A stretch of 64,000 nt of DNA from an uncultured Gammaproteobacteria bacterium. GTDB lineage: Bacteria > Patescibacteriota > Microgenomatia > Levybacterales > UBA12049. Location: positions 54,034 through 118,033 of the forward strand of contig CAYQEJ010000003.1 in NCBI GenBank assembly GCA_964416505.1, read 5' to 3'. Shown here in pieces: positions 11,410 through 33,195 of the stretch (its first letter is position 1; each line of letters opens with the position of its first letter). Made by a program: the position numbers and the translations under genes. Below the pieces are notes generated by a model, which searched no databases, was not told the DNA's origin, and worked only from the letters and a program-made list of their open reading frames with translations.

Positions 11410-11891
11410 AATTTAGAACCCATTTTAGCAGAAAACGTGTGAGTTATTGCAATAGCTAAAGCGTCATTTGTATCATCGAGTTTCGGTATTTTCTCAAGTT
11501 TTAAAATTATCTTAACCATCTGTGCAATTTGATTTTTTTCAGCTCTACCATATCCAGTTAATGCCATTTTTATCTGAAGGGGCGTATAAATAAAAATAGG
11601 AATTTTATTTTCCGCTGCAGCAAGTAGAATTACCCCTCTTGCCTGACCCACCGAAAATGCGGTTTTACTATTTGCTCCAAAAAAAAGTTCTTCAATTGAC
11701 AACTCATCAGGTTTATATTTTTTAATAATTTCTCTTATTTTCTGGTCTATAACAATCAGTCTTTCTTCAATTTTACCGTTTACCTCTGTCTCTATGCATC
11801 CATAATCTATTGGAGTCATTTTTGAATTTTCATTTTTTATAACCCCCCATCCACATCTCCCAATTCCCGGATCAATACCTAAGACTATCAT
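11406..11891 (-). CDS. ruvC: Crossover junction endodeoxyribonuclease RuvC
   Basis: MIVLGIDPGIGRCGWGVI is the RNase H-like RuvC N-terminus. Overlaps ruvA by 4 nt. Confidence 0.9.
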   Translation of the reverse strand: MIVLGIDPGIGRCGWGVIKNENSKMTPIDYGCIETEVNGKIEERLIVIDQKIREIIKKYKPDELSIEELFFGANSKTAFSVGQARGVILLAAAENKIPIFIYTPLQIKMALTGYGRAEKNQIAQMVKIILKLEKIPKLDDTNDALAIAITHTFSAKMGSKL

Positions 11892-16192: not shown

Positions 16193-18781
16193 TTATCTTT
16201 GAGTAATCAAATATTCCAAATTAATGTCAGAGCTAATGCTTAAAGACTTAAACTTATCAAGATCAATAACTCTATGAGTTTCTAAAGTTTCAATTCCTAA
16301 GTCGAATGTATACGGATCAGCTCCTGGCTGCTTAAACACTTTAAGAGAATATTTTGCTGATTTTTGAGTTCTAGGAAATGAATATGGTAAATCATATGTT
16401 AAAACAATAGTTTTTAAACTATCCGCTGGAATACTTACAAGAAATCCTGCTATAGTTTTATTCATTTGATTTTTTTCATTTACCTCTATTCCTTCTGGTT
16501 GGTTAAAATTTCGTGATTCATAAACGGCAGGATCAGTTACTGCTTTTTCAATTTTTAATTTCGTTCCATCAATTGATATTGAATTTAGCTTTACTGCTTC
16601 TGGTAAAATTAACTGTAAGTAATTTTTATAATTTTTATCTTTAGAACTATTTTTGTAAACTATAGTTAATTCTGAAGAAATCTTTCCGTTTTGCTGAAAA
16701 TTTATTTTCTTAGAAACACTTTTTGCTACATACCTATTTACATCGCTCTTGCTCAGATTTGATTCACTAATTCCAAGATAGTCATTAATCTTATTGTTCT
16801 CTTTCTCCCTATTATCCCAAAGACTTGATGACCAATCGCTTGATGTAAATACATTTTGGAACGAAGGTTCTGAAAAGGCAAAAGTTAAATCCTTTTTTAA
16901 TATTGAAGATCCAATTTCTTTTAAAAGTTGAATTTCAGAAAAGTCTTTATTATTTCCTTTAAAAATTGCTTTTGATAGGCTCAAAGAAAGATTATTATTT
17001 CTATCAAAATCTTTTACGTTTTCGTGATTTATTTTTCCTACTCCATCTACGTCAACAGAACCAATCACGCTTAAAATATTTTCTAATACATTTATATTCA
17101 TACCAATTACACCATCAACTTTTTCTTGATTAACAATTGAATATATATTGGAAGCTGTGATTGCGTCGTTTACGAAATCAGGATCAGATCCACTGTCCTT
17201 TAATTTAAGATTTTCAATTGATAAATATCTATTTAACCAAAAAGGTGGATCAATTTTTGCGTTAAGCTTCTCATCAATTTCTTTTACATCATAAGATTTA
17301 AAAGAAACAATATCTAAGTTTTGAATTTCAACAGTAAGGTATCCGATAACCACACCACCACCAGGACGAATTTCATTTTTATCATGCAGTAAAATCAAGT
17401 ACTTTTTTCTTTCGTTTACACCTAAAACATCTGGAAGAATGTCTGCTGAATTCGAAAACAATGTAACTATTGGAGCTATATTATTTATGTCACTTTCCAA
17501 ATCCCGTGGCACAGTACCCTCTGCTTTTACTTTTTGATATAAAAATAATGAATTTTTAAAAAGATTAGATGCCTCAGTAAAATCTTTTTTGGGATCTAAG
17601 CTTTTCTTTTCATGGATATTCCTAATCTTCTCTCCCCCATCAATTAGATATTCACCTGCTTTAGAAATATCTTCTCCGGATCTTGCTTTTTTTCGAATTG
17701 ATTCTGCACCTTTTTGCATTCCTAGAAATTTACCTTCAATAACTAAAGGCTGTGATGTTTTATATGCGATACCAAAAAAAACTTTAGCGTTACTTAATTC
17801 TTTTTTAGTTTTTCTTAAATCCCCCTCATTTAATTTCTCCATTGCGGAATCTAAAGATCTTTTTCCCAATAACAAGTACGCTTCTGTAGTAAGCAGTGGA
17901 AGAAGCATCACGAAAAGAATCAATAAAATAAGTGCTAAAAATGGTTTAAATAAATTTTTTTTATTTGTCTTTCTTTGAATTACATTTATTTGACGATTTT
18001 CTGAATTTCCCAGATCTAAATCTTTAATTTTTTCTTCTAAATCGTATTTACTTAATGCATGCTGAGAATTTTTTGGGATATAAATTTTCTCATCTTTTTT
18101 TTCATTTCCAAAATCCACTTTGATATCTGGATCAATCTTCTTAAAAGTATTTGCAAGAGAGATGTCTGTAATTGGATGAGGCGGAAAAAGAAGTATGATT
18201 TTCTGACTAACATCTAAATACGACGCTTTAATTAAAAGCTTAACTGTATCTTCAAATGAAACAGGAAAACTTAATGCTAAACCATTTCCTGGAACAATTA
18301 TTTTTTTATTTTTTCTCGCTTGAAGTATAAATCTCCCAATTGATGAATTTTTATCAAATAAGATATTTTTATCAAATATATCTCCAAATATAAGAACCGA
18401 GGAATTTGTATAAGAAGAGATAATTTCCTCTGAATGTGATACGTCAATATTCCTTGTGCTCCCAATGAAATAAAAATTTGCACTACTTTCTCTTGCCTTA
18501 GAAATGAAAGACTGAGCAGATCTTCTAGTTAGCTTGTCCCCATCATCAACTAAAAAAATTTTAGAATATCTATTGTTTGGCGCCTGTGGAATTTTATTTT
18601 TAAAAGGAATTTGAATTATTTTTTGCTTTCCATTGCTTTTTCTTGATGATAATAAAACTACTAATGTATCTTTTGAGAACTCTTCAGCTAATCTCTCCCC
18701 TATTACGCCAATTCTATCGACAATCAGTACGGGAAATGTTTTAAGATCTGTCTCATGTGCTTTGAGAACGGGCAGTTTCAT
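16193..18781 (-). CDS. Large bitopic protein: cytoplasmic Rossmann-like N-domain, one TM helix, about 570-aa extracytoplasmic domain (DUF4012-like architecture)
   Basis: 862 aa, TM helix around residues 283-300 (LALILLILFVMLLPLLTT). No catalytic motifs recognised. Confidence 0.45.
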   Translation of the reverse strand: MKLPVLKAHETDLKTFPVLIVDRIGVIGERLAEEFSKDTLVVLLSSRKSNGKQKIIQIPFKNKIPQAPNNRYSKIFLVDDGDKLTRRSAQSFISKARESSANFYFIGSTRNIDVSHSEEIISSYTNSSVLIFGDIFDKNILFDKNSSIGRFILQARKNKKIIVPGNGLALSFPVSFEDTVKLLIKASYLDVSQKIILLFPPHPITDISLANTFKKIDPDIKVDFGNEKKDEKIYIPKNSQHALSKYDLEEKIKDLDLGNSENRQINVIQRKTNKKNLFKPFLALILLILFVMLLPLLTTEAYLLLGKRSLDSAMEKLNEGDLRKTKKELSNAKVFFGIAYKTSQPLVIEGKFLGMQKGAESIRKKARSGEDISKAGEYLIDGGEKIRNIHEKKSLDPKKDFTEASNLFKNSLFLYQKVKAEGTVPRDLESDINNIAPIVTLFSNSADILPDVLGVNERKKYLILLHDKNEIRPGGGVVIGYLTVEIQNLDIVSFKSYDVKEIDEKLNAKIDPPFWLNRYLSIENLKLKDSGSDPDFVNDAITASNIYSIVNQEKVDGVIGMNINVLENILSVIGSVDVDGVGKINHENVKDFDRNNNLSLSLSKAIFKGNNKDFSEIQLLKEIGSSILKKDLTFAFSEPSFQNVFTSSDWSSSLWDNREKENNKINDYLGISESNLSKSDVNRYVAKSVSKKINFQQNGKISSELTIVYKNSSKDKNYKNYLQLILPEAVKLNSISIDGTKLKIEKAVTDPAVYESRNFNQPEGIEVNEKNQMNKTIAGFLVSIPADSLKTIVLTYDLPYSFPRTQKSAKYSLKVFKQPGADPYTFDLGIETLETHRVIDLDKFKSLSISSDINLEYLITQR

Positions 18782-18793
18782 TATAATTAAATT

Positions 18794-19234
18794 TTAGGAA
18801 AGATTCAGATGATTGTCTAGCGCGATATTCACAAGCCTATCTGCTTTTTTATTCTTTTCCCTTGGAATATGAGTATAAGTTATTGGAAGTTTTATTTCAG
18901 CCTCTTTTTGTTTTGCCATAAAAAGTAGCTCTCGAAGGTTAGCGTTTTTAATTTTATATAGACCATTCAATTGAGATGCAGCCAAATTTGAGTCCATAAA
19001 AAAATCTATTTTTTTTAATATAGGCATTTGATTTTTGTTTTCTAGTACCCATTCTAATCCTTCAATTATTGCTTTGTACTCAGCAACGTTATTTGTAGCA
19101 ATCCCTATATAAACCCCGATTGCAGCTAATGTTTCGCCACTTTCATTTTCGATAAATGTTCCAGTTGCTGCATGCCCCGGATTACCTCTTGAACCACCAT
19201 CAGTATAGATTTTCAAGCTTGTTGAATTATTCAT
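18794..19234 (-). CDS. rnhA: Ribonuclease HI
   Basis: IYTDGGSRGNPGHAATG, NNVAEYKAIIEGLEW, and DS...N..AD.L are the catalytic DEDD signature of RNase H1. Confidence 0.8.
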   Translation of the reverse strand: MNNSTSLKIYTDGGSRGNPGHAATGTFIENESGETLAAIGVYIGIATNNVAEYKAIIEGLEWVLENKNQMPILKKIDFFMDSNLAASQLNGLYKIKNANLRELLFMAKQKEAEIKLPITYTHIPREKNKKADRLVNIALDNHLNLS

Positions 19235-19401: not shown

Positions 19402-19851
19402 TTATTTAGGCTTTACAACAAGCGTTCTTTCTCTTCCTTCGCCTACTGATTCAGAAATCACATCAGAATCTTCTGCTAAATACATATGCACTTCACGTCG
19501 TTCCCAAGACTTTAAATTCGGTAAATATACTTCTCTTTGTTCATTTAAAACTCTCTCTCGTGTTTGCTCTGCCAATGTTTTTAAATAATCTGATCTATTT
19601 TTTTTATAATCCCCGACTTCCACACTTACTCTTTTAAATTCTCCTAATTTCTTAGCAATCATTAAAGAAAGAATCAATTGAATTGAATCAAGGGTGTCTC
19701 CGTGATGACCAATGATTAGACCTGGATCTTCAGAGTTAACAACGACATTTATTGACTCGTCATTTTCTGATACTTCAAATGAATCCTTTATTCCGAGGTT
19801 ATCAAAAAGATTTTGAATTATTTCTTTTGTAATTTTTTCGTTTTCTGCCAT
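19402..19851 (-). CDS. Jag/KhpB (EloR) family RNA-binding protein (KH + R3H)
   Basis: Follows yidC as in the conserved yidC-jag pair. C-terminal R3H-like segment. Overlaps the yidC 3' end by 34 nt. Confidence 0.7.
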   Translation of the reverse strand: MAENEKITKEIIQNLFDNLGIKDSFEVSENDESINVVVNSEDPGLIIGHHGDTLDSIQLILSLMIAKKLGEFKRVSVEVGDYKKNRSDYLKTLAEQTRERVLNEQREVYLPNLKSWERREVHMYLAEDSDVISESVGEGRERTLVVKPK

Positions 19852-20624
19852 AAATCTTCTAGGCCTCCTAAGCCCACGATTTTATATTGCTGTATGATAC
19901 CAAAAATTGTAAAAGTATTCCAGTATAGAGACAGTCCTACCGGAAATTGAAAAGAAAAGAATGCAATCATGATTGGGAAGATGTATGTAGATTGGGACTG
20001 GAAAGCCGAAGCAAAATCGTCATTCTTCTTTTTTACAGTAGTCTTTGGTGCTGAGAAAATCATTTTTGACTGAAGGAATTGCAATACTCCAGTAATCAAA
20101 GGAACCGATATTGCAACAATTGTTAAAGAATTTAATAGATGTGATGGGCTTTGTCCAATCGGAATAGTGAAAAATGTCGATTCCCAAGGATGCTGCAATT
20201 TTAATGGATTAATTACTATTCCATTTATATAGCTCACTACATCCGCGGAACTTTTATGAACCACATTATTTAAAACATTGTAAAGTCCCCAGATAACAGG
20301 AAGCTGTATAAGAGTTGGAAGACACCCTGCGGCTGGATTTACACCATGGTCTTTATAGAGCTTCATTGTCTCCTCTTGAATTCTTTTTCTATCTCCTTTG
20401 TGTTTTTCTTTTAGATTTGACAGGTGAGGAGCTAAGTCCTGCATTTTCTTAGATGCTTTTAGCTGAGCAGAAATAAGAGGATAAAGAATAATTCTTATTA
20501 CTATAGTCAATGTAATAATTGAGAAACCAAGAGGATAGGGAACATGAAGAGCCAAAAGTCCTTGATAGATTGCTACCAAAATATTTATTATCGGGTGTAC
20601 TATTAATAAATTAAATATTTCCAT
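19818..20624 (-). CDS. yidC: Membrane protein insertase YidC (short Gram-positive-type form)
   Basis: Five-TM core with the conserved C-terminal segment LYWNTFTIFGIIQQY and a basic tail. Lies in the rnpA-yidD-yidC synteny. Confidence 0.9.
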   Translation of the reverse strand: MEIFNLLIVHPIINILVAIYQGLLALHVPYPLGFSIITLTIVIRIILYPLISAQLKASKKMQDLAPHLSNLKEKHKGDRKRIQEETMKLYKDHGVNPAAGCLPTLIQLPVIWGLYNVLNNVVHKSSADVVSYINGIVINPLKLQHPWESTFFTIPIGQSPSHLLNSLTIVAISVPLITGVLQFLQSKMIFSAPKTTVKKKNDDFASAFQSQSTYIFPIMIAFFSFQFPVGLSLYWNTFTIFGIIQQYKIVGLGGLEDLWQKTKKLQKK

Positions 20625-20841
20625 TTATTTTTGCGTTATAAAACGGTTGGCATTTTAACAAACGATTGAATCCTAGCGCTAATCCTCTTAAAACTCCATT
20701 TTCCATTATATTTCTTTTCGTATATTCTGAACATGTTTCATCAAATCTGCAAAATCTAGAAACACCTAATACATTTTTTAAGAGCGTTGATAAGATTAAT
20801 TGATAAAAGGAGATTATGGTTACTAATGTATTTTTTATCAT
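20611..20841 (-). CDS. yidD: Membrane protein insertion efficiency factor YidD
   Basis: 76 aa with the CRFDETCSEY motif (haemolytic-domain family). Confidence 0.85.
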   Translation of the reverse strand: MIKNTLVTIISFYQLILSTLLKNVLGVSRFCRFDETCSEYTKRNIMENGVLRGLALGFNRLLKCQPFYNAKINGNI

Positions 20842-21164
20842 TTTAAATAATTATTTTCTTTAAAAGTCTTTTTTATTTCCTCTAAGACCCTCTGTCTTTC
20901 TGTATCCTTAGATATTTGACTCGGGTAAAATATAAAATCGTATCCTGGTTTTATATTATCAAATATTTCCTCTACACAAGATCTAACTTTTCTTTTAACT
21001 TCATTTCTTTGCGTAGATCTCTGATCAATTTTTTTAGAAACTACAAAAGTAAATCTACTAAGATTCAAATTATTTACTCCAATTTTTAGATTAAAAAGGG
21101 GAGTAGTGATAATTTTAGGATTTGTCAAATAAACGTTTGTAAGCCTGTTTGTTTTTCCAAGCAT
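20838..21164 (-). CDS. rnpA: Ribonuclease P protein component
   Basis: Basic 108-aa protein with the RNR-like motif RFTFVVSKKIDQRSTQRNEVKRKVR, located directly downstream of rpmH. Confidence 0.85.
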   Translation of the reverse strand: MLGKTNRLTNVYLTNPKIITTPLFNLKIGVNNLNLSRFTFVVSKKIDQRSTQRNEVKRKVRSCVEEIFDNIKPGYDFIFYPSQISKDTERQRVLEEIKKTFKENNYLK

Positions 21165-21298
21165 TATACTGTCATTTTTTTCCTGCCAGTAGCTCTTCTT
21201 CTTTTTAAAACTTTTCTACCATTAGAATCACTCGATCTTGCAAGAAATCCATGCTTCCTAGCTCTTTTTACTTTTTTAAGTTTTCTAAATTTTTCCAT
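21164..21298 (-). CDS. rpmH: Ribosomal protein bL34 (45 aa; absent from the ORF track)
   Basis: Manual translation of the reverse complement 21298->21164 gives [44 protein letters not shown]. This matches the bL34 consensus (..KR.RSHGFRARM.T.NGR.VL.RRRAKGRK.LTV). Its stop overlaps the rnpA start, the classic rpmH-rnpA arrangement. Confidence 0.85.
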
Positions 21299-21361
21299 TT
21301 TATAAGAATAAAGTATATCAAAGTGGTTTATTTTTTAAAAGTGGTAAAAAAAGAGATACTT

Positions 21362-21427
21362 TTATCCACTTTTGCATTATTGAGGGAAGTAGGTTCGTTT
21401 GGTAAACTTTTAGCTATGTTATCCACA
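21362..21427. promoter_or_regulatory. DnaA-box cluster upstream of, and overlapping, the dnaA start
   Basis: TTATCCACT at 21362-21370 (8/9 match to TTATCCACA), a perfect TTATCCACA at 21418-21426, and weaker AGTGGT(A/T)A repeats between them. Confidence 0.4.
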
Positions 21428-22765
21428 TCAGAGCTCTGGAAAAAAATTCTTGCTGAAATTCAGACTGAAATATCAAGCGCAAATTATTTAACTCTTTTTA
21501 AAAATACCACATTAATTTCATTAGAGGATAGCGTAGCTACAATCGGAGCTCCATCTACCATGATAATTGACCTATTAAATAAAAGGTTTTATGAAATTAT
21601 AAAAAAAACAGTTGATAAGCATGTAGGAAGAGATACAAAATTAATATTTGTCCCAAAGACTCTTCAAGTAGCATCAACCAAATCCGCTGGTCCACTTTTT
21701 TCCAAATCAAATGAAAAACCTAAAGCAACAGTAGGACATCTTCCTAGAATTAGAGCTGATTACACATTTCAAAATTTTGCAGTTTCTGGCACAAACCAGC
21801 TTGCATTTGTTTCAGCAACAACAGTAGCCGAAAAGCCGGGAACAACCTACAATCCTCTTTTTATTTATGGGCCTGTTGGGGTGGGGAAGACTCATTTAAT
21901 GCAGGCTGTTGCAAACGAGCTATACTCTAAGGATCCAAGCAAAAAAATACTATATATAACAAGCGAGGAATTTACCAATGAGGTAGTAGAAGGTATCAGG
22001 GCAAACAATACTGCAGCCATGAAAAGGAAGTTTCGACAAGTTGACCTGCTTATGATAGACGATATTCAGTTTATTGCAGGCAAAGAAAGAGTTCAGGAAG
22101 AACTGTTTCACACCTTTAACATTCTTGTTGATAATGCCTCTCAGATAATCCTCACCTCAGATAGACCTCCCTCTGAACTTAAGAAAGTAGAAAAAAGGTT
22201 GGTTTCAAGGTTTTCCGGTGGACTTACCGTAGACATTGATTCTCCCGATTATGAACTTAGATGCGCAATTCTTCTTACCAAAGCTAAAAAGTTTAATTTT
22301 GATCTTGATATTGAAACTGCAAAGATTATCGCACAAAAAACAGAAGACACAAGGGAATTAGAAGGTCTACTTCTGAGAGTAATGACTGAAGCTTCCAGCA
22401 AGCAAATCGAGGCTTCACCTGATCTAGCAGAGACTGCACTAAAATCAAATGATGATATTAAAAAAGCCCTTTATCCCGAAGATGTGGTCAAAAGTATATG
22501 TGAGTTTTATCAAATTAAACCAACACAGTTAAAGGGATCAAAAAGAGATGCAAAACTAGTTAGAGCAAGACAGGCCTGCATGTATGTGCTAAAAAAAGAA
22601 TGCAATCTCACATACTCTGAAATTGGTAACTTATTGGGAGGAAGAGATCACACCACGGTTATGCATGGTGTTGAAAAAATAGATTCACTTTTATCAGCTC
22701 ACAAGCTAACAGAGGAGACATTGGGGATAAAAGAGCTAGGAATCAAATCTAGTGTTGAAAACTAA
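21416..22765 (+). CDS. dnaA: Chromosomal replication initiator DnaA
   Basis: AAA+ Walker A GPVGVGKTHL, box VII, and the C-terminal DNA-binding domain signature VMHGVEKI. Start placed at ATG 21416 (MLSTSELWKKIL...); the 55 upstream in-frame codons of the track ORF are AT-rich and not homologous. Confidence 0.9.
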   Translation: MLSTSELWKKILAEIQTEISSANYLTLFKNTTLISLEDSVATIGAPSTMIIDLLNKRFYEIIKKTVDKHVGRDTKLIFVPKTLQVASTKSAGPLFSKSNEKPKATVGHLPRIRADYTFQNFAVSGTNQLAFVSATTVAEKPGTTYNPLFIYGPVGVGKTHLMQAVANELYSKDPSKKILYITSEEFTNEVVEGIRANNTAAMKRKFRQVDLLMIDDIQFIAGKERVQEELFHTFNILVDNASQIILTSDRPPSELKKVEKRLVSRFSGGLTVDIDSPDYELRCAILLTKAKKFNFDLDIETAKIIAQKTEDTRELEGLLLRVMTEASSKQIEASPDLAETALKSNDDIKKALYPEDVVKSICEFYQIKPTQLKGSKRDAKLVRARQACMYVLKKECNLTYSEIGNLLGGRDHTTVMHGVEKIDSLLSAHKLTEETLGIKELGIKSSVEN

Positions 22766-22808
22766 GGCAAGTTTTACACATGGAAAAAACAAAAAAGTTA
22801 TTAACAGG

Positions 22809-22912
22809 TAATCCACATAACTTATCAACAAGATATCCACATTTTTCTGAGGCTGGCTCGTTGCTTTTTTCCACTTTTCCTGGTAACCTACTACAACTAC
22901 AAATTTATATAT
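22809..22912. promoter_or_regulatory. Candidate oriC core in the dnaA-dnaN spacer: three DnaA boxes and an AT-rich unwinding stretch
   Basis: TAATCCACA (22809-22817), ATATCCACA (22833-22841) and TTTTCCACT (22867-22875) are all in the same orientation. The run aaatttatatatatg follows at 22898-22912. Confidence 0.5.
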
Positions 22913-24028
22913 ATGTTTAAAATAACTGTTTTATCAAGTAATTTGAAAAATGGTATTTCCTTTGCAAATCATGCAATTTCTTCTAAAAGCCAATTACCAA
23001 TACTTCTAAATTTCTTATTAAGTGCTAGGGAAGGATATTTAACGATATCAGCAACAGATTTAGAAATTGGAATAATAATAAAAATACCTGCTAAGGTTGA
23101 GGAAGAAGGGGATGTGAGTATTTCAGCTAAAACTTTTGTAGATTTGATTTCAAATATAGACCAAGAAAAAATAAATTTAGAACTAAAAGAGAACGTTTTG
23201 CTTCTTAAAGCAGAAAAGCTAAAAACATCATTCCCTACGCTTATTGCTTCAGAATTCCCCAAACTATATGAGACAAAAGGAGAGAAGCAGGGTGAATTTA
23301 AAAAAGAAGAATTAGAAAGAGAAATCCAAAGGATTGTTTTTTCCTCAGCGGGGGATAGTGGTAGGCCTGCTTTGGCTGGAGTTTTGGTTAGAAAAGATTC
23401 AGAAGGAAAACTAATTGTTGTCGCAACTGATGGTTATAGACTTTCTCTAAAAGAAGGATTTTCTGAAAAAGCAGAGAAGGGAGAGGGCGTAGACCTTCTC
23501 ATTCCTTCGCGTGTTGTTAAAGAGGTTTTAGGAGTGAAACAGGAAGATGATTTAGTTAAGCTTTATGTTGCAAGAGAGGGAAACCAGGTTATCTTTGAAT
23601 GTGGAGACGCAATGATTGTTGGAAGGTTAATTGATGCAGAATACCCTGATTATCAAAAAATAATTCCAGACGAATCAACCACAAAAGCCATATTTGATAA
23701 AGCACACGCGCAGGCAGCGGTTAGAGCATGTTCTGTTTTTGCTAGGGAAGCTGCAAATATAGTAAAAATGGGAATTGGTAATGGAAAAATAACTTTTTCT
23801 GCTAGTGCATCCTCGGTAGGGGAGAATGAAGTAGAGGTTGAGGCAAAAACCACTGGGGAAGAAAATGAGATTGCGTTTAATGCAAGATATTTACTTGAGT
23901 TCTTTTCAGTGATAGATGCTGAAGAAATATCTTTCGAAATGACAGGTCCTTTAAATTCGGGAGTCTTTAGGGTGGTAGGGGATAATTCCTATTTACACCT
24001 CATAATGCCAATTAGAATCACTGACTAG
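22913..24028 (+). CDS. dnaN: DNA polymerase III beta sliding clamp
   Basis: MFKITV...LLNFLLSAREGYLTISATDLEIGI N-terminal clamp domain, 371 aa, directly after dnaA. Confidence 0.9.
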   Translation: MFKITVLSSNLKNGISFANHAISSKSQLPILLNFLLSAREGYLTISATDLEIGIIIKIPAKVEEEGDVSISAKTFVDLISNIDQEKINLELKENVLLLKAEKLKTSFPTLIASEFPKLYETKGEKQGEFKKEELEREIQRIVFSSAGDSGRPALAGVLVRKDSEGKLIVVATDGYRLSLKEGFSEKAEKGEGVDLLIPSRVVKEVLGVKQEDDLVKLYVAREGNQVIFECGDAMIVGRLIDAEYPDYQKIIPDESTTKAIFDKAHAQAAVRACSVFAREAANIVKMGIGNGKITFSASASSVGENEVEVEAKTTGEENEIAFNARYLLEFFSVIDAEEISFEMTGPLNSGVFRVVGDNSYLHLIMPIRITD

Positions 24029-24029: not shown

Positions 24030-24455
24030 TTATTTAAAACCACTTTTTAGGTTAGTTAAATCAGTTTTTTTAAGATTATATTCGTTAAGTAATTTAGATA
24101 ATTCTGTATTCGCCTCTAAAGTCCTAGATCTATTGGAAAGAAATAAGAAAGAGTCATTTAAATAATCATAACTGAGTTCGAATAGATCGGATTTATAAGG
24201 TAGGCTTCTGATCAATACTCCCAACTGTTTAGGTGCTATTTGAGCATCAGCATCTTTTTGTGTAACACCTAAAGAATCAGTGTGATAAGGTTCTTTTTCT
24301 GTCTCATCAAAGACTGGTGTAGGAGCAATGCTGCTAATATTTTTAGTTTCTTTAGGAAGAACTGTGACCACGATGCTTATAAAAATAAGATAAAAAATTA
24401 TGGCTAAAAATATTAAAAATAGAATCTTATGTTTTTTTAAAAGTTCTTTAATCAT
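24030..24455 (-). CDS. Bitopic membrane protein (N-terminal TM anchor, about 100-aa extracytoplasmic domain); last gene of the T4SS-like operon
   Basis: TM helix ILFLIFLAIIFYLIFISIVVTVL. Overlaps the upstream gene by 8 nt. Its stop is 1 bp from the dnaN stop, so the two are convergent. Confidence 0.5.
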   Translation of the reverse strand: MIKELLKKHKILFLIFLAIIFYLIFISIVVTVLPKETKNISSIAPTPVFDETEKEPYHTDSLGVTQKDADAQIAPKQLGVLIRSLPYKSDLFELSYDYLNDSFLFLSNRSRTLEANTELSKLLNEYNLKKTDLTNLKSGFK

Positions 24456-25224
24456 TTTTTCTTATTGGAACTAATGACATAAACCTCGTGTCATATCTGT
24501 TCATTTGTGTTAGGGACGGGTGATAAATAAAATTACTTGAATTACATTTATCGCTTGCGGAAGCCACTATAAGTGTTTCGTTTTTTGGATTAGCGCCTAG
24601 CACAACAAATGTATGACTACATCTTCCTTCGCATCCGACCCAATTTTCTGCTGAGCCTAGGATATACCACCCTTGATTTGTAAATCTTTGAATTGCTTCA
24701 AGATCAGCTTTAGTCAAATGTCTTCTGTTATCTCTGTCTCTGCCTCCTTCTATAAGATCAACTTGCGCTCTTTTTAACCCTATGCTTCGTAAAAAGACAG
24801 TATCTACAATTGAAAATGGACTAGTTCCTACGTATCCATAAGCATTTCCCGGTTGCCAAGCAAAACCTTTTTCGGTAAATAATTCAGCTACTGTAGCAGG
24901 ATTTGCAACTCCTCGATCACTGGGGCGAGCTTTTAGTCCATAAGTCGCAAGTATCATGGCTATAGATGATGGTCCACAGCCTGAGCTGCCGACCGTACCA
25001 GTATCATAACGATTATTACCCCATGGAGAATCAAATTGACAGTAGTAAACAAAATTCCCGGGTTTTGTACCCGTGCTGGTGTCTCCTCCGAAATCTGATC
25101 CTTTACCAACCACCGTGGTTACAGTGTCGTGAGCTATACCCGTTTGCTGTGCAAAAGCAGGAGACAGAATAATTAAGCTGAGAAGTAAATTAATTAGGAA
25201 AAGAAGAGAGAGGATTTTCTTCAT
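24448..25224 (-). CDS. Secreted papain-like cysteine peptidase (Peptidase_C39_2/CHAP-like), candidate cell-wall hydrolase of the T4SS-like cluster
   Basis: Signal peptide MKKILSLLFLINLLLSLIILSPAFA. YYCQF...SSGCGPSSIAMILATYG contains the candidate catalytic Cys in the C39-like context, and ...CSHTFVVLG contains the candidate His. Confidence 0.55.
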   Translation of the reverse strand: MKKILSLLFLINLLLSLIILSPAFAQQTGIAHDTVTTVVGKGSDFGGDTSTGTKPGNFVYYCQFDSPWGNNRYDTGTVGSSGCGPSSIAMILATYGLKARPSDRGVANPATVAELFTEKGFAWQPGNAYGYVGTSPFSIVDTVFLRSIGLKRAQVDLIEGGRDRDNRRHLTKADLEAIQRFTNQGWYILGSAENWVGCEGRCSHTFVVLGANPKNETLIVASASDKCNSSNFIYHPSLTQMNRYDTRFMSLVPIRKND

Positions 25225-25262
25225 TTAACAATATTTAAGCACAATTGATTTAGTCTTACAAC

Positions 25263-25784
25263 CTAACACCCAGAAGGGAGTGGGTTAAATTGGGAATTTC
25301 TTGGAAAATCATTTGCAGCAAAGGCACCTAGATAAAACCTTACTGGTAAATTGCATAGTCCGTTTTTTGAAAAACCTTGATTAAGTAGATAATTTTCTGC
25401 TTCAGTTTTGGCTAGATCAATGTCTTTTGAATTAATTTCTATTTCGAAGTCATCTAGAGACTCAACGTATTGGATAATAAAATTTTCATTTTGAAAAATA
25501 ACTCCTGATTTGTTGTCTAACGGCGTTAAGATTTTGGCTTTTGCATCTAGGTCTGAAGGAGGAAGTGGCTGTCTAGTAGTTAGTTTTATTAAGGATTTTC
25601 CTAAGCTTCCAGGTTCATAGTTAACAACTGGCTTTGTGTATATTTGCTTCGAAGGGGTAGGTATTGGTTTTTGCGATGATCTTAAGTCGGAAAGAGTAGA
25701 TGCTATAGCAAGTAAAACAAATATTACTACTAAAATAACCGCAGAAATCAGATATATTATATTTTTTTTATTCTTTAAGTTCAT
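25263..25784 (-). CDS. Bitopic membrane protein (VirB8-like topology)
   Basis: N-terminal TM IIYLISAVILVVIFVLLAIA followed by an approximately 140-aa external domain. No sequence motif to confirm a VirB8 fold. Confidence 0.4.
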   Translation of the reverse strand: MNLKNKKNIIYLISAVILVVIFVLLAIASTLSDLRSSQKPIPTPSKQIYTKPVVNYEPGSLGKSLIKLTTRQPLPPSDLDAKAKILTPLDNKSGVIFQNENFIIQYVESLDDFEIEINSKDIDLAKTEAENYLLNQGFSKNGLCNLPVRFYLGAFAANDFPRNSQFNPLPSGC

Positions 25785-25785
25785 C

Positions 25786-28053
25786 TTACCTTATTGTATT
25801 ATATTCACCGTTTGTGCAAAGTTCAGGTGCGCCTCTGCAAACATTGGTTTCGCATTGCCAATAATCGAAATCTAAATTTCTTGGTTCAAGCACGATTTTT
25901 TCTCTGTCTACAGCTACTTGTATTTGTTCTTTCCACTCCACATTACCTCTATTGTAGGCAAGAGGATTGCGGTTGGAGCCCATTTGAAAAGCTCCCCAGG
26001 CTCCTTTGGGATCGGGTGTGCAAACGCTTCCATCGCTATTACATCTAAAATATGCATTGGGTCTATGGCCGCTTTCACATTCAGAAAGTAAGTACCAAAA
26101 TCTATAGTTTTTTGGATCTTTTGACTTAAGTTCATTCCCGAAATCGTTAAGTGTATAGTTGCAGCTTGGGTCTCCGAAATTTCCTTTAGGTGCGTTTACG
26201 GAATTATACTTTCCTGAGCAACTATCTCCAGTAGCAGGAGGTCCTCCGCCTCCAGTAGCGCCTAGAATAGAAATTGACACATCAAAAGTGCTATCGTCTT
26301 GGGGACGAAGAATTAAAGTAAAAGAATACATGGTTTGTTCGCCTGTTTCTGAAGGCGAATTATCCTTTAATCGCCAAGTGATTGCGCTTGAGTTTGTAGG
26401 AGATCTGTATATCCCCGTTGTGCCGCTCGGAATCAAAGTAGTCTCTTCAGGAATATCTGCGCTTACTGAAATATTTTCGATAGGGTCTACTGCATTTCTT
26501 TTATCGTAAATAACGATTATTTCATATCTCAAATCAACGCCATTGGGAGAAGATTGCGGGCCATAAATTGTATAGCTTATTCCTGCATAGCGGCTATTTG
26601 TGATTGGTTTTGTTAGATCTGAAGTGTTAAAGAAGATTTGGCCTATTATCACAAATATAAAGATTATTAGAGCTATTATGATAACAGCTGGTAAGCTAAT
26701 GGTGGTAACCGTAATCCCAATTCCTGTAATAATTTTTGCTAATACTAGAGAAATAACGCTTATCGTGGCAGCGGCTGCACTTGTAGCCACGCCTATTATT
26801 GCAGAAATTGCTGTTGTTAAAAAACCTGCGATGGAAGATAAAAGTGAGCCAAGTATTGATCTTGCAAACAGTCTTTCTAAATATCCAATTGGATCTAAGA
26901 ATTTTTTTAATTTAAAAAACTTTTTGTTTAGGTTCTTAAATCTATTAATTGATTTAGATTTAGACAGACGGTTACCTAGTCTTGTTTTGAAAAATCTTTT
27001 GTATAGCCAGTTTTGATTTTGAGTTGATTGTTGCGATTGGGATTTGCTTTGGTTGGTAGTTTGAGGAGCGTTAGCGAAATTATTTTGCAATACTGGGAGG
27101 GAGGCAGGAATAGGAGAAGTTAATGGCTGTGGTTTCGTAATCTGTGTTGGGGAAGGTTTGTTTCTTCTAAGTAAACGGGATGTGATCCCAGGATTTTGAT
27201 AGGTATATGTTATGTCTTTCTGCCTTTTCCTTTCGATAGCTGATGTTAGCTCTGGGTCATTGTATTGTGCTGCCCATTTTTTTGCATTTTGTGGAGAATA
27301 TGTGACCAGATGTTCTTCAATTTCTTCCTGCGCATTGGAAATTGCTCGTGATCGATCTAAATATCTAGCGCTTGGATCTCTACTATCATAATCTTTTGCT
27401 GTTTTTTCGATATATCTTCGTCTAGTTTCTAGATAATCAGAGTAAGTAAGATTTTTGTTTTCTAGGCTTACTTTCTCAAAAGCCAAGTCGAGTTGGGTAT
27501 TTTGAGGGTCTTTGGAAAGCCATTCGCGTGCCTTTTTAGGATCGGCTCTAACTAATAATTCATGGTATTCCCGTCGTGCTCTTTCATATGCCTCCAGTCT
27601 GCTTTTTGCAACAGGAGCATTTCTTTTTGAGGGATTTTGATTATATCTCCTGTATTCTTCCTCCCACTTTTTTGCAAAATACTCAGCATATCTATCTGCT
27701 TCTTTTTGAGATTCTTCATATGACCCCCCGCGTCTTAAAAGGTTAACACCTGCGATAATAGATCCTAAAGCTAAGCTCTGTGGATTTCTGGGGCTGGAGT
27801 TTTTATCTTTATCTTTTGACTCAATTTCTATATTTGCTCCCTGCGATCGTTGAGTATTTATGTCTTCAATGCCTTGCCAAATTCCTTGAGTATTTAAAAT
27901 CTGATTTTCAAATAAAATTTTTTCAAATGATTGCCTATTTCCAGCTCTAAAAGCATTAAATAATTGATTTTGGTCGAATCTGGATAAATTTCCAAGTTGT
28001 GAGGCTGCCCACTTAGCATTTTCTAGGCTTAATTGTTTCTCGTTTTCATCCAT
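25786..28053 (-). CDS. Polytopic membrane protein with a C-terminal Rpf/transglycosylase-like (lysozyme-fold) domain; VirB1-analogous peptidoglycan hydrolase fused to a channel-like membrane core
   Basis: 755 aa. About 390 aa of cytoplasmic Q/S/R-rich N-terminus, then at least 3 TM helices (residues about 395-470). The Cys-rich external C-terminus ends with LLSECESGHRPNAYFRCN...KGAWGAFQMGSNRNPLAY...WKEQIQVAVD...WQC, matching the CESG...G.FQ...EQI.VA...W..C pattern of Rpf-type transglycosylase domains. Confidence 0.5.
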   Translation of the reverse strand: MDENEKQLSLENAKWAASQLGNLSRFDQNQLFNAFRAGNRQSFEKILFENQILNTQGIWQGIEDINTQRSQGANIEIESKDKDKNSSPRNPQSLALGSIIAGVNLLRRGGSYEESQKEADRYAEYFAKKWEEEYRRYNQNPSKRNAPVAKSRLEAYERARREYHELLVRADPKKAREWLSKDPQNTQLDLAFEKVSLENKNLTYSDYLETRRRYIEKTAKDYDSRDPSARYLDRSRAISNAQEEIEEHLVTYSPQNAKKWAAQYNDPELTSAIERKRQKDITYTYQNPGITSRLLRRNKPSPTQITKPQPLTSPIPASLPVLQNNFANAPQTTNQSKSQSQQSTQNQNWLYKRFFKTRLGNRLSKSKSINRFKNLNKKFFKLKKFLDPIGYLERLFARSILGSLLSSIAGFLTTAISAIIGVATSAAAATISVISLVLAKIITGIGITVTTISLPAVIIIALIIFIFVIIGQIFFNTSDLTKPITNSRYAGISYTIYGPQSSPNGVDLRYEIIVIYDKRNAVDPIENISVSADIPEETTLIPSGTTGIYRSPTNSSAITWRLKDNSPSETGEQTMYSFTLILRPQDDSTFDVSISILGATGGGGPPATGDSCSGKYNSVNAPKGNFGDPSCNYTLNDFGNELKSKDPKNYRFWYLLSECESGHRPNAYFRCNSDGSVCTPDPKGAWGAFQMGSNRNPLAYNRGNVEWKEQIQVAVDREKIVLEPRNLDFDYWQCETNVCRGAPELCTNGEYNTIR

Positions 28054-28055
28054 AT

Positions 28056-29999
28056 TTACTTATTTTGGTCAAAATCAGAGAAGCCAGGTGCAATTTGCGG
28101 CGTCTGCGGAGGAACAAAACCTGATTGATTCATGGGACTAATGGGCGCTGGGTTTTGGTAGGGTGCTGAAAAAGAAGTCTCATTCATTATTCTTTGCTCC
28201 TCCTGTCTTCTTAAAAGTTCTTCTGGATTTGAAGTAATAATCTTGTGTTCAAACGGAGCAGATATCACTTTCATGGAAACATGACTTTGTCCTGCAAAAA
28301 ATAAACCCTCTCCGACGTTTGCTGATAAAAGTAGTTGTTTTTCCTGCTGTGTTAAATAGAAAATTTGAGACACTAAATCTATCTCAGTAGGGCTTTGTTT
28401 TAAAAGCATCTGAATGGACGAGTTTGAAAGAATTGCCTTTCCATAATCGGTGGAGAGAAAGTCCTGAACATCCTGGGTAGCTGTTGTTAGTGCAAGATAA
28501 TATTTCCTAGCTCTTTTAGCTATTCCATGGATGAAAGAGGCAGAGTCTTGGTATTTCATAAGGTACCAGGCCTCATCAAGCACTAATAGTCTTTTTTTAA
28601 GATCTTTTCTAACTCTCGTCCAAATGAAATCAAGAATTATATGCATAGCCACGGGGCGAAGCTGATCTTCGAGTCCTCTAGTTGAAAATGCAGTGAATGG
28701 ATTTTTTATATCAAAGTTTGATTGTTGGTTAAAAATTCCAGCCATGCTTCCTTTTATAAATTTCTCAAGCCTTAGTGCTAGGTTTTTAGAAATTTCATCC
28801 TCGTTTCCCAAGAGAACTTTATATAGATCTTCCATGAGAGGAGGCTTCTTTGTTTGTGTAGATGGGTCTGGTGTAATTCCTTTTTGCCTGTAAACTTCTA
28901 CTAATGCTCGATCAAGAATTGCGTCATGCGCTGCATCAAGTTCTCCCATAACGATTCTAAGAAGAGCATGGAGCGAAAGGATTTTTAATCCTAATTCATT
29001 TTCTCCTTGTTCATAGATACCAGATAAGTCGAATGGATTAATCTTGATAGGAGAGGCGGGGGTGAACTCAATATATTCTCCGCCGAGGGTTCTCGTGAGT
29101 TCCCCATATTCTCCTTCAGGATCAATTACTATGATTTCAGCGCCAAACATAAACTGTCGCATAAGCTCCAGCTTGATAAGGTAAGATTTTCCTGCTCCAG
29201 ATTTTCCGAAAACCACTTCGTTTGCATTTTCTAGAGAGTATCTGTCAAAAATGATTAATGAATCATTTAGCTTATTTAGTCCATACATTACTCCTTTATC
29301 TTGGGTGAGAGTGGCAGATGTAAACGGAAACGTTGAAGCGAGGGAAGTGGTGTCCATGTTTCTGGTCAAGAATAATTGATCGTCTGCAATTGGAATGCTT
29401 GATTTAAAACCAGCATCCATTTGAAGGGTTGCGGGTTTAGCTAGGACAAGAATTGAAGCCAGAAGTGTTTTGAGTCTTTTTGATGCCTCTTCAAGGTCCT
29501 CTTTTGTATCAGATATTAATGTAATGTAAAGGCTAAATTGAAAAAATCTTTCTATTCCCTTTGCGAGTTCTTCCTGTACCGAAAGTGCGTCTTCTAGAGA
29601 AGCTTGGACGGTAGGATCTAAGACTTTATTATTCTGTGTTTGTTCCATAAGGGTTGCTTCCATTTCGCCAATTTTTCTTCTTAGATCTTGGAGGGCATCT
29701 GGTGAAGATGTGGGATAGCAGAACATAGAAAGATTTAGTGAATGTTCAAAATCAATAAGAGGTTCAAGCCAATTAGGTGAAACAAATCTGGGGTATCCCA
29801 CAACGAAAAAAGTTTTGTGATATTTTTCTCCAATTCTAATATGCCCAAAATCAACTTCGATAGAAGAAGGGGCTATGATATCCGTAACAGAATTCATGCC
29901 TCTTTCGATTCTTTTTATTCCCTCATTTGCAGGGTGAATCGCTGCGCCAGGAATAGGATTAGTTTTTAAGCTTTGATCTTTTTTGTTAAATAGTTTCAT
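28056..29999 (-). CDS. VirB4/TrbE/CagE-family type IV secretion ATPase
   Basis: 647 aa, no N-terminal TM. N-terminal CagE_TrbE_VirB-type region (IAPSSIEVDFGHIRIGEKYHKTFFVVGYPRFVSPNWLEPL). Walker A VFGKSGAGKSYL, Walker B LLVLDEAWYLM, and C-terminal LTTATQDVQDF, typical of VirB4. Confidence 0.75.
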   Translation of the reverse strand: MKLFNKKDQSLKTNPIPGAAIHPANEGIKRIERGMNSVTDIIAPSSIEVDFGHIRIGEKYHKTFFVVGYPRFVSPNWLEPLIDFEHSLNLSMFCYPTSSPDALQDLRRKIGEMEATLMEQTQNNKVLDPTVQASLEDALSVQEELAKGIERFFQFSLYITLISDTKEDLEEASKRLKTLLASILVLAKPATLQMDAGFKSSIPIADDQLFLTRNMDTTSLASTFPFTSATLTQDKGVMYGLNKLNDSLIIFDRYSLENANEVVFGKSGAGKSYLIKLELMRQFMFGAEIIVIDPEGEYGELTRTLGGEYIEFTPASPIKINPFDLSGIYEQGENELGLKILSLHALLRIVMGELDAAHDAILDRALVEVYRQKGITPDPSTQTKKPPLMEDLYKVLLGNEDEISKNLALRLEKFIKGSMAGIFNQQSNFDIKNPFTAFSTRGLEDQLRPVAMHIILDFIWTRVRKDLKKRLLVLDEAWYLMKYQDSASFIHGIAKRARKYYLALTTATQDVQDFLSTDYGKAILSNSSIQMLLKQSPTEIDLVSQIFYLTQQEKQLLLSANVGEGLFFAGQSHVSMKVISAPFEHKIITSNPEELLRRQEEQRIMNETSFSAPYQNPAPISPMNQSGFVPPQTPQIAPGFSDFDQNK

Positions 30000-30643
30000 A
30001 TTTTCATTTTTCCAGTAACCATGGGAGTTATGATATCTTTGGATACTCCCGAGCTGCTTTCGTTGTTATAGATCTCATAAAAAAGCCTAATTAGTTCGTC
30101 TTTTTCCAAAATTTTTGATTTCAAACCGGATCTTAAAAGCTCTTGGATTATAGATGAAGATTTGGAAGTTAATAAATTTTTTGCATCTCTTATTATCGCA
30201 TCTCTGTCTCTTGAGTTTGCAATTCCTCCAGCTCCTTTTTCAAGATACGAGTACGAAATGGAGATATAAAATTTTTTATCAAGAACTGTATTTTTTTGAA
30301 CAAGTTGAGAAACGAATTCTTTATACATTCTAATGTGTTCTGAGAATGTTGGGTTAGATGCTTTCGCAGCTTGTTCCTCGAGTAGTTTTTGATAATTACT
30401 GATATCGAGTTTTCTGCTCAAAATTACTATTTGAATAGGAAAAGATAGGGAGTTGATGAGCGAAGCATAAGAGAGAATTTTTATTTCTTGTTCTTCTTTG
30501 GATTGTAATGCAAAATTTGTCGCTGTAACTTCTATAACCATACACACACTTCCTCCGGACATAAGAACTAGGCTGTCTATAATGTCCTCAATCTCTATAA
30601 ACTTTTGTGTTGTCGCTATGGTTTTTGGGGCAGAGTTTTTCAT
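29996..30643 (-). CDS. Hypothetical cytoplasmic protein (215 aa) translationally coupled between the VirB3-like and VirB4-like genes
   Basis: No TM or signal. Overlaps the VirB4-like start by 4 nt and abuts the upstream gene. No recognisable family. Confidence 0.45.
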   Translation of the reverse strand: MKNSAPKTIATTQKFIEIEDIIDSLVLMSGGSVCMVIEVTATNFALQSKEEQEIKILSYASLINSLSFPIQIVILSRKLDISNYQKLLEEQAAKASNPTFSEHIRMYKEFVSQLVQKNTVLDKKFYISISYSYLEKGAGGIANSRDRDAIIRDAKNLLTSKSSSIIQELLRSGLKSKILEKDELIRLFYEIYNNESSSGVSKDIITPMVTGKMKI

Positions 30644-31942: not shown

Positions 31943-32070
31943 AATAAATACAAATAAGAGCTCTTTGCTTCATACTAGAATATAACGTGAAAAATAGCGT
32001 TTCAAGGCTATCAAAATGAATCAATTTTTGAGGATTTTGAAGCTAATTGTGAAAACAACTTTTTAGACAC

Positions 32071-32700
32071 TTAATTTTGACAAGTGTAGATTATATCTCC
32101 CGCATGATTAAGCTTTTTGCATGTTCTGTTAAGAGCACAGTATCCATGAGGATGCGCTTCGCTGCAAGGAAATTGGCATGTGTAGTGACTACCTGTATCG
32201 TTTGGCACGCAGATTCTACCCGTAGGGCATATTCCGTCCGGATGTTGATTGTTGCATCTATAAGCGACGCTATCGGGAACACATTGATCAAATCCAAATG
32301 TTGAAATGCAGGCGTTTACTCCAGTTAGTCTTATTATGAAAGGTAATATTATTACTGATAATAAAATTAAGGTTAATCCCAAAATAGAAAAAGTAAGTGT
32401 TTTTTTGGCCCCATCTGCTTTTTTTGCATCACCTCCAGAGCTAACAAATTTAAATCCGGAAATTATAATCATGGCTACTGCGACAATTCCTGCGAAAATA
32501 AACACCCAGTAAATTACGTTTCCTAGGATAATTGGTAGGCAGTTAAGCGTTGCTACCTGGTTCGATCCGCCAGTTAGACATCCAGATCCTCCAAGAGGGG
32601 TAAAATTTGCAGCAAAAACATTTGGGGTGAAAAAAAGAAATCCAGAAATTAACAAAAAGAAAAATAAAAACTTTTTCACTGATAAATAAAAGCGTAACAA
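32071..32700 (-). CDS. VirB2/TrbC-like pilin paralog 1 with a Cys-rich C-terminal extension
   Basis: Signal peptide, hydrophobic helix, loop SGFKFVSSGGDAKKADGAKK, second hydrophobic helix, then a 75-aa tail containing 11 Cys. Confidence 0.5.
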   Translation of the reverse strand: MLRFYLSVKKFLFFFLLISGFLFFTPNVFAANFTPLGGSGCLTGGSNQVATLNCLPIILGNVIYWVFIFAGIVAVAMIIISGFKFVSSGGDAKKADGAKKTLTFSILGLTLILLSVIILPFIIRLTGVNACISTFGFDQCVPDSVAYRCNNQHPDGICPTGRICVPNDTGSHYTCQFPCSEAHPHGYCALNRTCKKLNHAGDIIYTCQN

Positions 32701-32721
32701 AGAAGATGTTAAATTACAAGA

Positions 32722-33141: not shown

Positions 33142-33195
33142 TACTTATTTGATCGTATTGTGTTTTTAATTGTTTGTCAAGTACCTTTTCTGAAT

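Follow-up and report, generated by a model that had tools for sequence, protein, structure and literature searches.

A probable DnaA-dependent chromosomal replication origin of the Bacillus subtilis type in the dnaA-dnaN spacer of Candidatus Levybacteria

Is the DNA around dnaA in the 64-kb stretch analysed here (hereafter the window, from contig CAYQEJ010000003.1) the replication origin of the chromosome to which it belongs, and if so, on which side of the gene does initiation take place? A preliminary description of the window had read the region as an origin with DnaA-box clusters on both sides of dnaA, and had itself raised a doubt based on the orientation of the neighbouring genes. The origin reading is supported by gene context, by a cluster of DnaA boxes, by a switch in strand skew and by a conserved module. 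The locus is very probably an ordinary DnaA-dependent chromosomal origin (oriC) of the dnaA-dnaN type known from Bacillus subtilis. Box-cluster statistics, the skew change point and conservation point to the 147-bp spacer between the two genes (22766-22912) as its core. The dnaA gene (21416-22765, plus strand) encodes a 449-residue protein with the Pfam domains DnaA_N, Bac_DnaA and Bac_DnaA_C, and dnaN (22913-24028, plus strand) encodes a beta sliding clamp of 371 residues with all three DNA_pol3_beta domains.

A search with the DnaA protein returned as closest matches metagenome-assembled genomes (MAGs) of Candidatus Levybacteria or Levyibacteriota. Related loci used in comparisons carry L numbers: identity to the DnaA of the window is 85-87% for L001-L004, 77% for L005, 73% for L006 and 58% for L007, and the next match is a Pacebacteria genome, L008, at 39%. 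Because its DnaA matches Levybacteria MAGs, we assign the window by sequence to a chromosome of Candidatus Levybacteria, within the Microgenomates, which belong to the Candidate Phyla Radiation (CPR, or Patescibacteria). The third-party annotation (TPA) MAG records of L001, L002, L003 and L005 are titled 'uncultured Gammaproteobacteria bacterium', which conflicts with their content. These labels are probably wrong, since a DnaA identity of 77-87% is accompanied by full synteny with Levybacteria/Levyibacteriota MAGs.

Strand skew was analysed at four-fold degenerate third codon positions, expressed on the plus strand, since gene orientation differs between the two sides of the locus. In cumulative form, the GC skew of the window drops from 0 to a minimum of -850 at 21857, inside dnaA, before climbing to +190. 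At four-fold sites, the skew to the left of the locus is -0.26 in minus-strand genes and -0.36 in plus-strand genes, while to the right it is +0.33 and +0.22, respectively. C equals or exceeds G at these sites in 21/21 open reading frames (ORFs) up to and including dnaA, and G equals or exceeds C in 34/34 ORFs from dnaN onwards. The switch is independent of gene strand and holds over 21 kb leftward and 41 kb rightward. The dnaA gene behaves as part of the left arm (15 G and 31 C; P = 1.5e-5 under the right-arm frequency) and dnaN as part of the right arm (18 G and 13 C), and L001-L004 likewise show an excess of C over G in dnaA and of G over C in dnaN. A single-change-point likelihood calculated over 1757 sites placed the switch at 22654-22657, with a log-likelihood gain of 80. 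The intervals delimited by 2 and 3 log-likelihood units (22477-23815 and 22279-23857) both take in the dnaA-dnaN spacer and leave out the intergenic region between rpmH and dnaA. The polarity is the one expected of an origin, not a terminus, because G exceeds C on the strand leading away from the locus. The position of the GC-skew minimum had been set in advance as the test by which the origin reading could be refuted; both the cumulative minimum and the change point favour an origin.

The spacer contains six DnaA boxes, all on the plus strand. Three of them, TAATCCACA, ATATCCACA and TTTTCCACT, had been named in the preliminary description and are present at 22809, 22833 and 22867 in a single orientation; three further co-oriented boxes, TTTTACACA, TTATTAACA and TTATCAACA, had been missed. 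Box S1 (TTTTACACA, 22772-22780) is an exact match to TTWTNCACA and is kept as TT(A/T)TACACA in L001-L005. It is followed by a head-to-tail array (22798-22841) of boxes S2 (TTATTAACA), S3 (TAATCCACA), S4 (TTATCAACA) and S5 (ATATCCACA), which start at 22798, 22809, 22822 and 22833 and are thus spaced by 11, 13 and 11 bp. In an alignment of eight genomes a box is found at every position of this array, with a sequence that drifts within the consensus. Box S6 (TTTTCCACT, 22867-22875), the first box of the unwinding module described below, is kept as TTTT(C/A)CAC(T/A) in 8/8 genomes. Counting as a box any match to TTWTNCACA with at most 1 mismatch on the same strand, the spacer holds six boxes within 105 bp, against three in the best cluster elsewhere in the window. 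A six-box cluster appeared in 0/200 Markov simulations of the whole window and in 0/5000 simulations of the spacer composition, and the cluster is beyond chance. Boxes are not enriched over the window as a whole, either as 1-mismatch matches to TTATCCACA (21 found, 17.3 expected) or as exact TTWTNCACA (11 found, 8.0 expected); these counts, being at chance level, were dropped as evidence, and clustering alone is informative. Far from the locus, a second perfect TTATCCACA lies at 35157-35165 (plus strand), inside a Trans_reg_C gene (34553-35875, minus strand) for a response-regulator DNA-binding domain. No neighbouring boxes were found around it, and for this reason it is probably a chance occurrence.

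At the dnaN-proximal end of the spacer, S6 (9 nt) opens a module that continues with a degenerate 8-nt second box (TTTCCTGG), a 4-nt gap (TAAC), CTACTACAACTACAA and then the least stable DNA. S6 has 2 mismatches to TTATCCACA and is oriented towards the triplets, as in B. subtilis. The second box and the gap together form a 12-nt interval (22876-22887, plus strand), which gives the 9+8+4 geometry listed for B. subtilis in the consulted tables. The 9-mer TTTTCCTGG that overlaps the second box has 4 mismatches to TTATCCACA, and L006 has (T)TATCCTCC as its second box. The 12-nt interval leads into an array resembling DnaA-trios, CTA CTA CAA CTA CAA (22888-22902, plus strand), which reads 3'-GAT GAT GTT GAT GTT-5' on the lower strand. 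The AT-rich segment that follows (22903-22941) spans the start codon of dnaN and is our candidate DNA unwinding element (DUE). Indeed, the least stable 40-mer of the region 21001-23100 starts at 22902, with a nearest-neighbour free energy (dG) of -39.65 kcal/mol that lies at the 99.85th percentile of the window; the AT-rich stretch previously noted in the spacer is thereby borne out.

The dnaN-proximal end of the spacer, with this module, is far better preserved than the box array. CTACTACAAC, in the triplet array, is invariant in 8 genomes, and the dnaN-proximal end as a whole, TTGCTTTTTTCCAC(T/A)T(T/A)TCC...CTACTACAAC(T/A)AC(A/T)AA, is nearly invariant, L007 included. Over 46 nt, the module of the window is 96-100% identical to those of L001-L005 and 78-83% identical to those of L006 and L007, while the four-fold sites of dnaA and dnaN are just 35-47% identical across these relatives, and thus saturated. 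A structured RNA or leader was considered for the conserved module and ruled out, since folding of 22845-22935 gave z = +1.0 relative to shuffled sequences and no Rfam match was found in 21100-23100 even at E ≤ 1. In L007, the most distant Levyibacteriota relative, an additional AT-rich insert with repeats of the TAGCTAT type separates the box array of the spacer (11315-11602) from its conserved module.

As published, the basal unwinding system (BUS) is defined by a DnaA box with at most 2 mismatches oriented towards the trios, a box-to-trio spacer of at most 16 bp (mode 10-13), an optional second box with at most 4 mismatches, and repeated 3'-NAN-5' trios, at least three of them consecutive, with the consensus 3'-GAT-5'. 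Among the 249 box-like sites of the window (at most 2 mismatches), S6 is the sole one followed by at least three in-phase CTA triplets. In the GAT register its array reads GAT GAT GTT GAT GTT, with two consecutive canonical triplets and GAT at 3/5 in-phase positions, which is unique in the window (1/249). The permissive form of the rule (NAN three times within 16 bp) was not used as evidence, as 36% of the box-like sites conform to it. Triplets 3 and 5 are CAA (3'-GTT-5'), break the rule of a central A and are invariant across Levybacteria. Since modules of other CPR lineages commonly have a deviant third or fourth triplet (GAA, CGA, CTG or GTA), we treat CAA as a probably tolerated variation.

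These other lineages share the layout. Every other CPR dnaA-dnaN spacer that could be read (L008, L024, L025, L048 and L081-L094) carries, in its dnaN-proximal part, a 9-nt first box, an 8-nt second box, 3-4 nt and a run of CTA or TTA triplets. Given in the order box 1, box 2, gap and triplets, the modules read TTTTTCCCA-C, TTATCCACC, GTCT and CTATTACTACAACAA in L008 (Pacebacteria); TTATCCCCA, AATCCACA, AGAC and TTATTATTACTA in L024 (Saccharibacteria); TTATCCACT, TATCCACA, GTA and CTAATAATA... in L048; TTTTACACT, TTTGCACC, TTTA and CTACTACTGCTACTACTA in L086; TTATTCACT, TATCCACC, TCAC and CTATTACTACTATTACTA in L088; TTATCAACT, TATCCCCA, ACCC and CTACTACTACGACTACTA in L090; and TTATCAACT, TATCAACC, GTCT and CTACTACTAGTACTACTG in L094. 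In contrast to Levybacteria, most of the modules of L008, L024, L025, L048 and L084-L094 have at least three consecutive canonical triplets, and these modules lack the invariant TTGCTT and the TA-gap that are specific to Levybacteria. For complete CPR genomes, skew inflexions of the origin type have been reported close to dnaA, together with a small repeat array (PMC7111523). No CPR entries were found in the consulted part of the published BUS survey of 2070 species (Pelliciari Table S1), and a literature search found no paper treating oriC, the DnaA box and Patescibacteria together.

The incC/BUS region of B. subtilis (Richardson et al. 2016/2019; Pelliciari et al. 2021) likewise lies in the dnaA-dnaN spacer, with several co-oriented boxes before the module. 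Within the tables consulted, the likeness extends to the 9+8+4 geometry, to the CTA-type triplets of the top strand (3'-GAT-5' on the lower strand) and to the AT-rich DNA next to dnaN. These tables, which write the complementary strand (Pelliciari et al. 2021 Tables S1/S2, PMC8287927), give the B. subtilis module as TTATCCACA + AATCCACA + GGCC + CTACTATTACTTCTACTA with a spacer of 12, and their consulted entries show a 12-nt spacer in Listeria and Oceanobacillus too. The Levybacteria module differs from that of B. subtilis in several respects: the second box TTTCCTGG is far more degenerate, the gap TAAC is not GC-rich, triplets 3 and 5 are CAA (GTT on the lower strand), and the AT-rich tract before dnaN measures about 10 nt and continues into the dnaN coding sequence. 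In addition, the upstream cluster, which resembles incA/B in position, is down to two boxes.

The initiator proteins are also alike. The DnaA of the window is full-length and aligns with B. subtilis DnaA (8btg) at E = 1.4e-88. It retains Lys222 and Glu223 (Lys-Glu in AGKE) and the Arg264 finger (Arg in RLVSRF), has Val in place of Ile190, a conservative change, and carries in domain IV the box-reading motif GGRDHTTV. Judged from this alignment, it keeps the residues used by B. subtilis DnaA for filament formation, for contact with single-stranded DNA and for box reading. The bipartite oriC of Helicobacter pylori (oriC1 upstream of dnaA, oriC2 downstream with the DUE) has no dnaN neighbour and contains supercoiling-sensitive boxes. 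It resembles our locus in having boxes on both sides of dnaA and the unwinding element downstream, and it differs in that a part of the upstream boxes in initiation is not indicated by the Levybacteria data. The oriC of Escherichia coli is not beside dnaA, has 13-mer repeats and IHF/Fis sites, and carries its boxes in two opposed half-arrays. It shares with our locus the TTWTNCACA-type boxes and a flanking DUE and, in the consulted part of Table S1, an orientation of R1 to the DUE like that of box to trio here. For H. pylori, a BUS-type box-plus-trio arrangement is described in two studies (PMC8235120, PMC8287927).

On the other side of dnaA, the intergenic region that separates it from rpmH (21299-21415) appears from the alignment to hold divergent promoters and DnaA operator boxes. 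A mechanical ORF start at 21251 makes dnaA overlap rpmH. We place the true start by sequence comparison at the ATG at 21416, because the N-terminal alignment with B. subtilis DnaA then pairs residue 5 with residue 5 and because the sequence upstream has a 5-nt indel relative to close relatives. Box U1 (TTATCCACT, plus strand) was found exactly at 21362-21370, as previously described; it is invariant as TTATCCA(C/T)T in the window and L001-L006. The perfect box U2 (TTATCCACA, plus strand), which had been placed upstream of dnaA at 21418-21426, does exist, but it occupies 21419-21427 and forms dnaA codons 2-4 (ATG TTA TCC ACA); it is kept in L001-L004. A predicted dnaA promoter, TTGAGG-17 nt-(TGG)TAAACT (21380-21408, plus strand), has its -35 element 9 nt downstream of U1, and relatives show TTGACA-17-TAAACT at the aligned position. 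Its score of 8/12 explains why the promoter scan did not list it. The window combines a weak -35 element (TTGAGG) with a TG-extended -10 element, whereas L001-L004 have a perfect TTGACA without TG. The invariant blocks of the alignment are the box TTATCCA(C/T)T, ATATTGA (-35) and TAAACTT (-10), and the rest of the region is variable, with indels that are not multiples of 3.

The -10 element ends 7 nt before the ATG. The dnaA mRNA would therefore be leaderless or nearly so, and the perfect box in codons 2-4 would lie at the start of transcription. In L005 and L007 a perfect box is found between -35 and -10 instead, so that the operator changes its position while every dnaA promoter retains a box. 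In L007, the rpmH-dnaA region measures about 600 nt (9387-10000), and a TTGACA-box-TAAACT promoter is found about 400 nt upstream of dnaA. Because both coincide with the predicted dnaA promoter and the first codons, U1 and U2 are most likely autoregulatory operators through which DnaA would repress its own promoter. Autoregulation is the best reading of the aligned sequences and would account for both boxes without any origin role. The term 'bipartite', applied to the locus in the preliminary description, thus holds for the layout, with boxes on both sides of dnaA, and fails for the upstream 'cluster', which consists of two boxes on the dnaA promoter and codons. Counted by side, six boxes lie downstream of dnaA; two good ones (21362 and 21419) and a weak inverted one lie upstream. 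By analogy with B. subtilis, the upstream boxes may help via looping. The weak element (TTTACCACT, 21340-21348, minus strand) has 2 mismatches to TTWTNCACA, and AAAAGTGGTAAAAAAAG at this site is kept in L001-L004. It pairs with U1 in an inverted repeat, I7 (21337-21350 / 21360-21373), which is weak evidence. A consensus scan also found a putative promoter-like site for rpmH, TTTAAA-16 nt-TATACT with an upstream TG (21312-21339, minus strand), whose GTATATCAAA block is invariant among relatives.

The genes to the left are as previously described: Pfam bears out a minus-strand series rpmH-rnpA-yidD-yidC-jag that diverges from dnaA-dnaN. The first gene of this operon, which runs to 19402, is rpmH (21164-21298, ribosomal protein L34; Ribosomal_L34, E = 3e-14), followed by rnpA (20838-21164, Ribonuclease_P), yidD (20611-20841, YidD), yidC (19818-20624, 60KD_IMP) and jag/KhpB (19402-19851, KH/R3H). 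L001-L007 and L081 share this gene order. After jag, within 16193-19234 on the minus strand, come an RNase H gene and a gene for an 862-residue DUF4012 protein, a pair that is kept downstream of the rpmH operon from Levybacteria to the Pacebacteria locus L008. In the latter (MFWV01000011.1, 5284-18126), a type IV secretion system (T4SS) cluster, dnaA, dnaN, rpmH, yidD, yidC, jag, rnh and the DUF4012 gene follow each other in this order on one strand, and, relative to Levybacteria, the segment of dnaA and dnaN, box-plus-trio module included, has the inverse orientation at the same place. The stretch covered by this locus is 21 kb.

To the right of dnaN, genes lie predominantly on the minus strand, as had been remarked (26/35 ORFs and 72% of coding bases in 24030-60379). 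They begin with a Patescibacteria-type T4SS cluster (24030-34517, minus strand), outside oriC and transcribed towards it, which includes a VirB4/TraG-type ATPase (28056-29999), a PrgI/VirB3-like protein (30644-31942) and three VirB2-like pilins (32071-34517), all on the minus strand and identified with Pfam. The block is syntenic and in the same orientation in six relatives (L001-L006), a T4SS cluster also adjoins dnaA in L008 and in the Saccharibacteria locus L025, and the four-fold skew of the cluster matches that of its replichore, which means that it has equilibrated. From this synteny, this distribution and this skew, we regard the block as an old resident and not a recent insertion. According to a recent study (Microb Genom 2025, PMC12102498), the T4SS of Patescibacteria is often next to dnaA, dnaN and rpmH, in Microgenomatia and Paceibacteria, and VirB4, PrgI/VirB3-like proteins and VirB2-like pilins stand beside dnaN/dnaA/rpmH as they do in the window. 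A foreign insertion beside oriC is ruled out by the synteny, the replichore-matched skew and this association. The T4SS is transcribed head-on to the fork in three CPR lineages (Levybacteria, L008 and L025), and this orientation is unmentioned in the consulted part of PMC12102498.

Further right, the minus-strand genes include smpB (49482-49934), the tmRNA gene (49052-49441), two class-A penicillin-binding proteins (PBPs, 55730-60379) and several tRNAs, and pgk is also among the housekeeping genes of this arm. Within 5.5 kb (41338-46839) we found four tRNA-Ser genes (TGA, GGA, CGA and GCT) and one tRNA-Arg gene (GCG), interspersed with small ORFs for a NUDIX protein and a lamin-tail-domain protein. 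Five large ORFs (534-1237 residues) had no Pfam match at E ≤ 0.001: 35940-39653 on the plus strand, and 25786-28053, 41426-43864, 49953-51872 and 39658-41262 on the minus strand. One of these five, the ORF of 755 residues inside the T4SS cluster, diverges fast, with 25-42% identity to its counterparts in the relatives in which VirB4 is 77-85% identical.

Several observations weigh against an origin with a BUS-type module at this locus. The array shows two consecutive canonical triplets before CAA, against a published minimum of three NAN, and the permissive rule, written as three NTN on the top strand, holds in another register alone (TTC CTG GTA), as it does for 90/249 boxes. A weak sigma-70 promoter, TTGCTT-17-TA(A/T/C)(C/A)CT, is a second way to read the module in Levybacteria, and the conservation of the module may partly be promoter constraint. 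The skew was seen over 64 kb, and a second inflexion or an origin elsewhere in the genome is possible. Finally, no four-fold skew switch was found around dnaA within 21 kb in L008; this locus is uninformative as an independent skew test, all its genes being on one strand with a skew that follows the coding strand. The promoter-like features could mean that the conserved 3' module (22861-22912) is a dnaN promoter with a DnaA operator in the spacer, regulatory and not unwinding, which would be compatible with an oriC in the spacer. The -35-like TTGCTT is invariant in 8 aligned genomes and occurs also in L081 and L082, the 17-nt spacing is constant, the -10-like TAACCT/TATACT/TACACT keeps T1, A2 and T6 while its middle varies, and the dnaA promoters of L005 and L007 are built alike, their DnaA box being placed between -35 and -10. 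However, the hexamers match the consensus at 3/6 and 3/6 positions and the site was not listed by the scan, while CTACTACAAC, downstream of the supposed -10, is equally invariant. Moreover, CPR lineages without TTGCTT and the TA-gap retain the geometry of box 1, box 2, 4 nt and CTA repeats, and about 100 nt or more separate the module from the dnaN ATG in L082, L086 and L088. A scan for terminators between dnaA and dnaN found none, which is neutral here. We thus consider a purely regulatory module unlikely; a dnaN promoter possibly overlaps the unwinding module. It is doubtful, on the sequences compared, that initiation in Levybacteria, and more loosely in other Microgenomates, relies on a variant single-strand code marked by the invariant CAA at positions 3 and 5 and by an almost lost second box.

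Initiation might instead take place in the rpmH-dnaA intergenic region, or require both clusters as in B. subtilis (incA/B and incC) and H. pylori (oriC1 and oriC2). The layout around dnaA is like that of bipartite origins, and the region offers two conserved boxes, including the perfect one at the gene, together with an AT-rich stretch (dG of 40-mers -43 to -45). Against this, the two good boxes both sit on the predicted dnaA promoter and start codon, no box followed by CTA triplets was found in the upstream region, dnaA itself has the skew of the left arm, and the 3-log-likelihood interval leaves the region out; we hold opening upstream of dnaA, or a need for both clusters, to be very unlikely. 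The boxes might also be transcriptional operators of dnaA and dnaN only, with the origin elsewhere and a local skew switch produced by a rearrangement or a foreign block. The head-on orientation of 72% of the coding bases right of dnaN, the view limited to 64 kb and the absence of a switch at dnaA in L008 speak for this possibility, which we nevertheless hold to be extremely improbable. The switch is strand-independent, extends over both arms and has its centre at the spacer. The block to the right keeps its synteny in six relatives, has an equilibrated skew and shows a proximity to dnaA that is known in Patescibacteria (PMC12102498), and the right arm carries the housekeeping genes smpB, tmRNA, PBPs and pgk. 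The alternative raised in the preliminary description, that a foreign block had been inserted or that the functional origin is elsewhere, is thus needed in neither form, given a conserved T4SS cluster and a skew switch at the locus. The head-on bias is unusual, yet it is no argument against an origin, because the skew at neutral sites is independent of gene strand and is clearly driven by replication.

Taking the locus as an oriC whose core is the dnaA-dnaN spacer, we infer that ATP-DnaA would bind the co-oriented boxes S1 (22772), S2-S5 (22798-22841, about one helical turn apart) and S6 (22867). S6 and the adjacent degenerate 8-nt box would guide an oligomer of DnaA to the lower strand of the CTA repeats (22888-22902). 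The oligomer would then stretch and open the very AT-rich duplex from 22903 to about 22941, which overlaps the start of dnaN. The helicase would load at this opened duplex, and forks would depart both ways.

Mildly unusual features of this origin are limited to the CAA triplets, which are invariant, and to neighbouring genes whose head-on orientation is conserved. If the doubtful variant code were real, DnaA would tolerate or read a triplet without a central adenine, or CAAC(T/A)AC would be the site of a second initiation factor. The head-on orientation of the T4SS and of 72% of the next 40 kb would then point to an unusually weak selection against replication-transcription conflicts in slow-growing epibionts or, alternatively, to a replication-coupled control of the T4SS. 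As an ordinary oriC, the locus fixes the origin of the Levybacteria chromosome to about 150 bp, which is of use in orienting and checking metagenome-assembled genomes and in deriving growth from read-depth ratios. The range of the box-plus-trio module known from B. subtilis is widened to the CPR as well, the 9+8+4-nt geometry being unchanged; beyond this extension, the biology is that of the textbook and no concept is changed.

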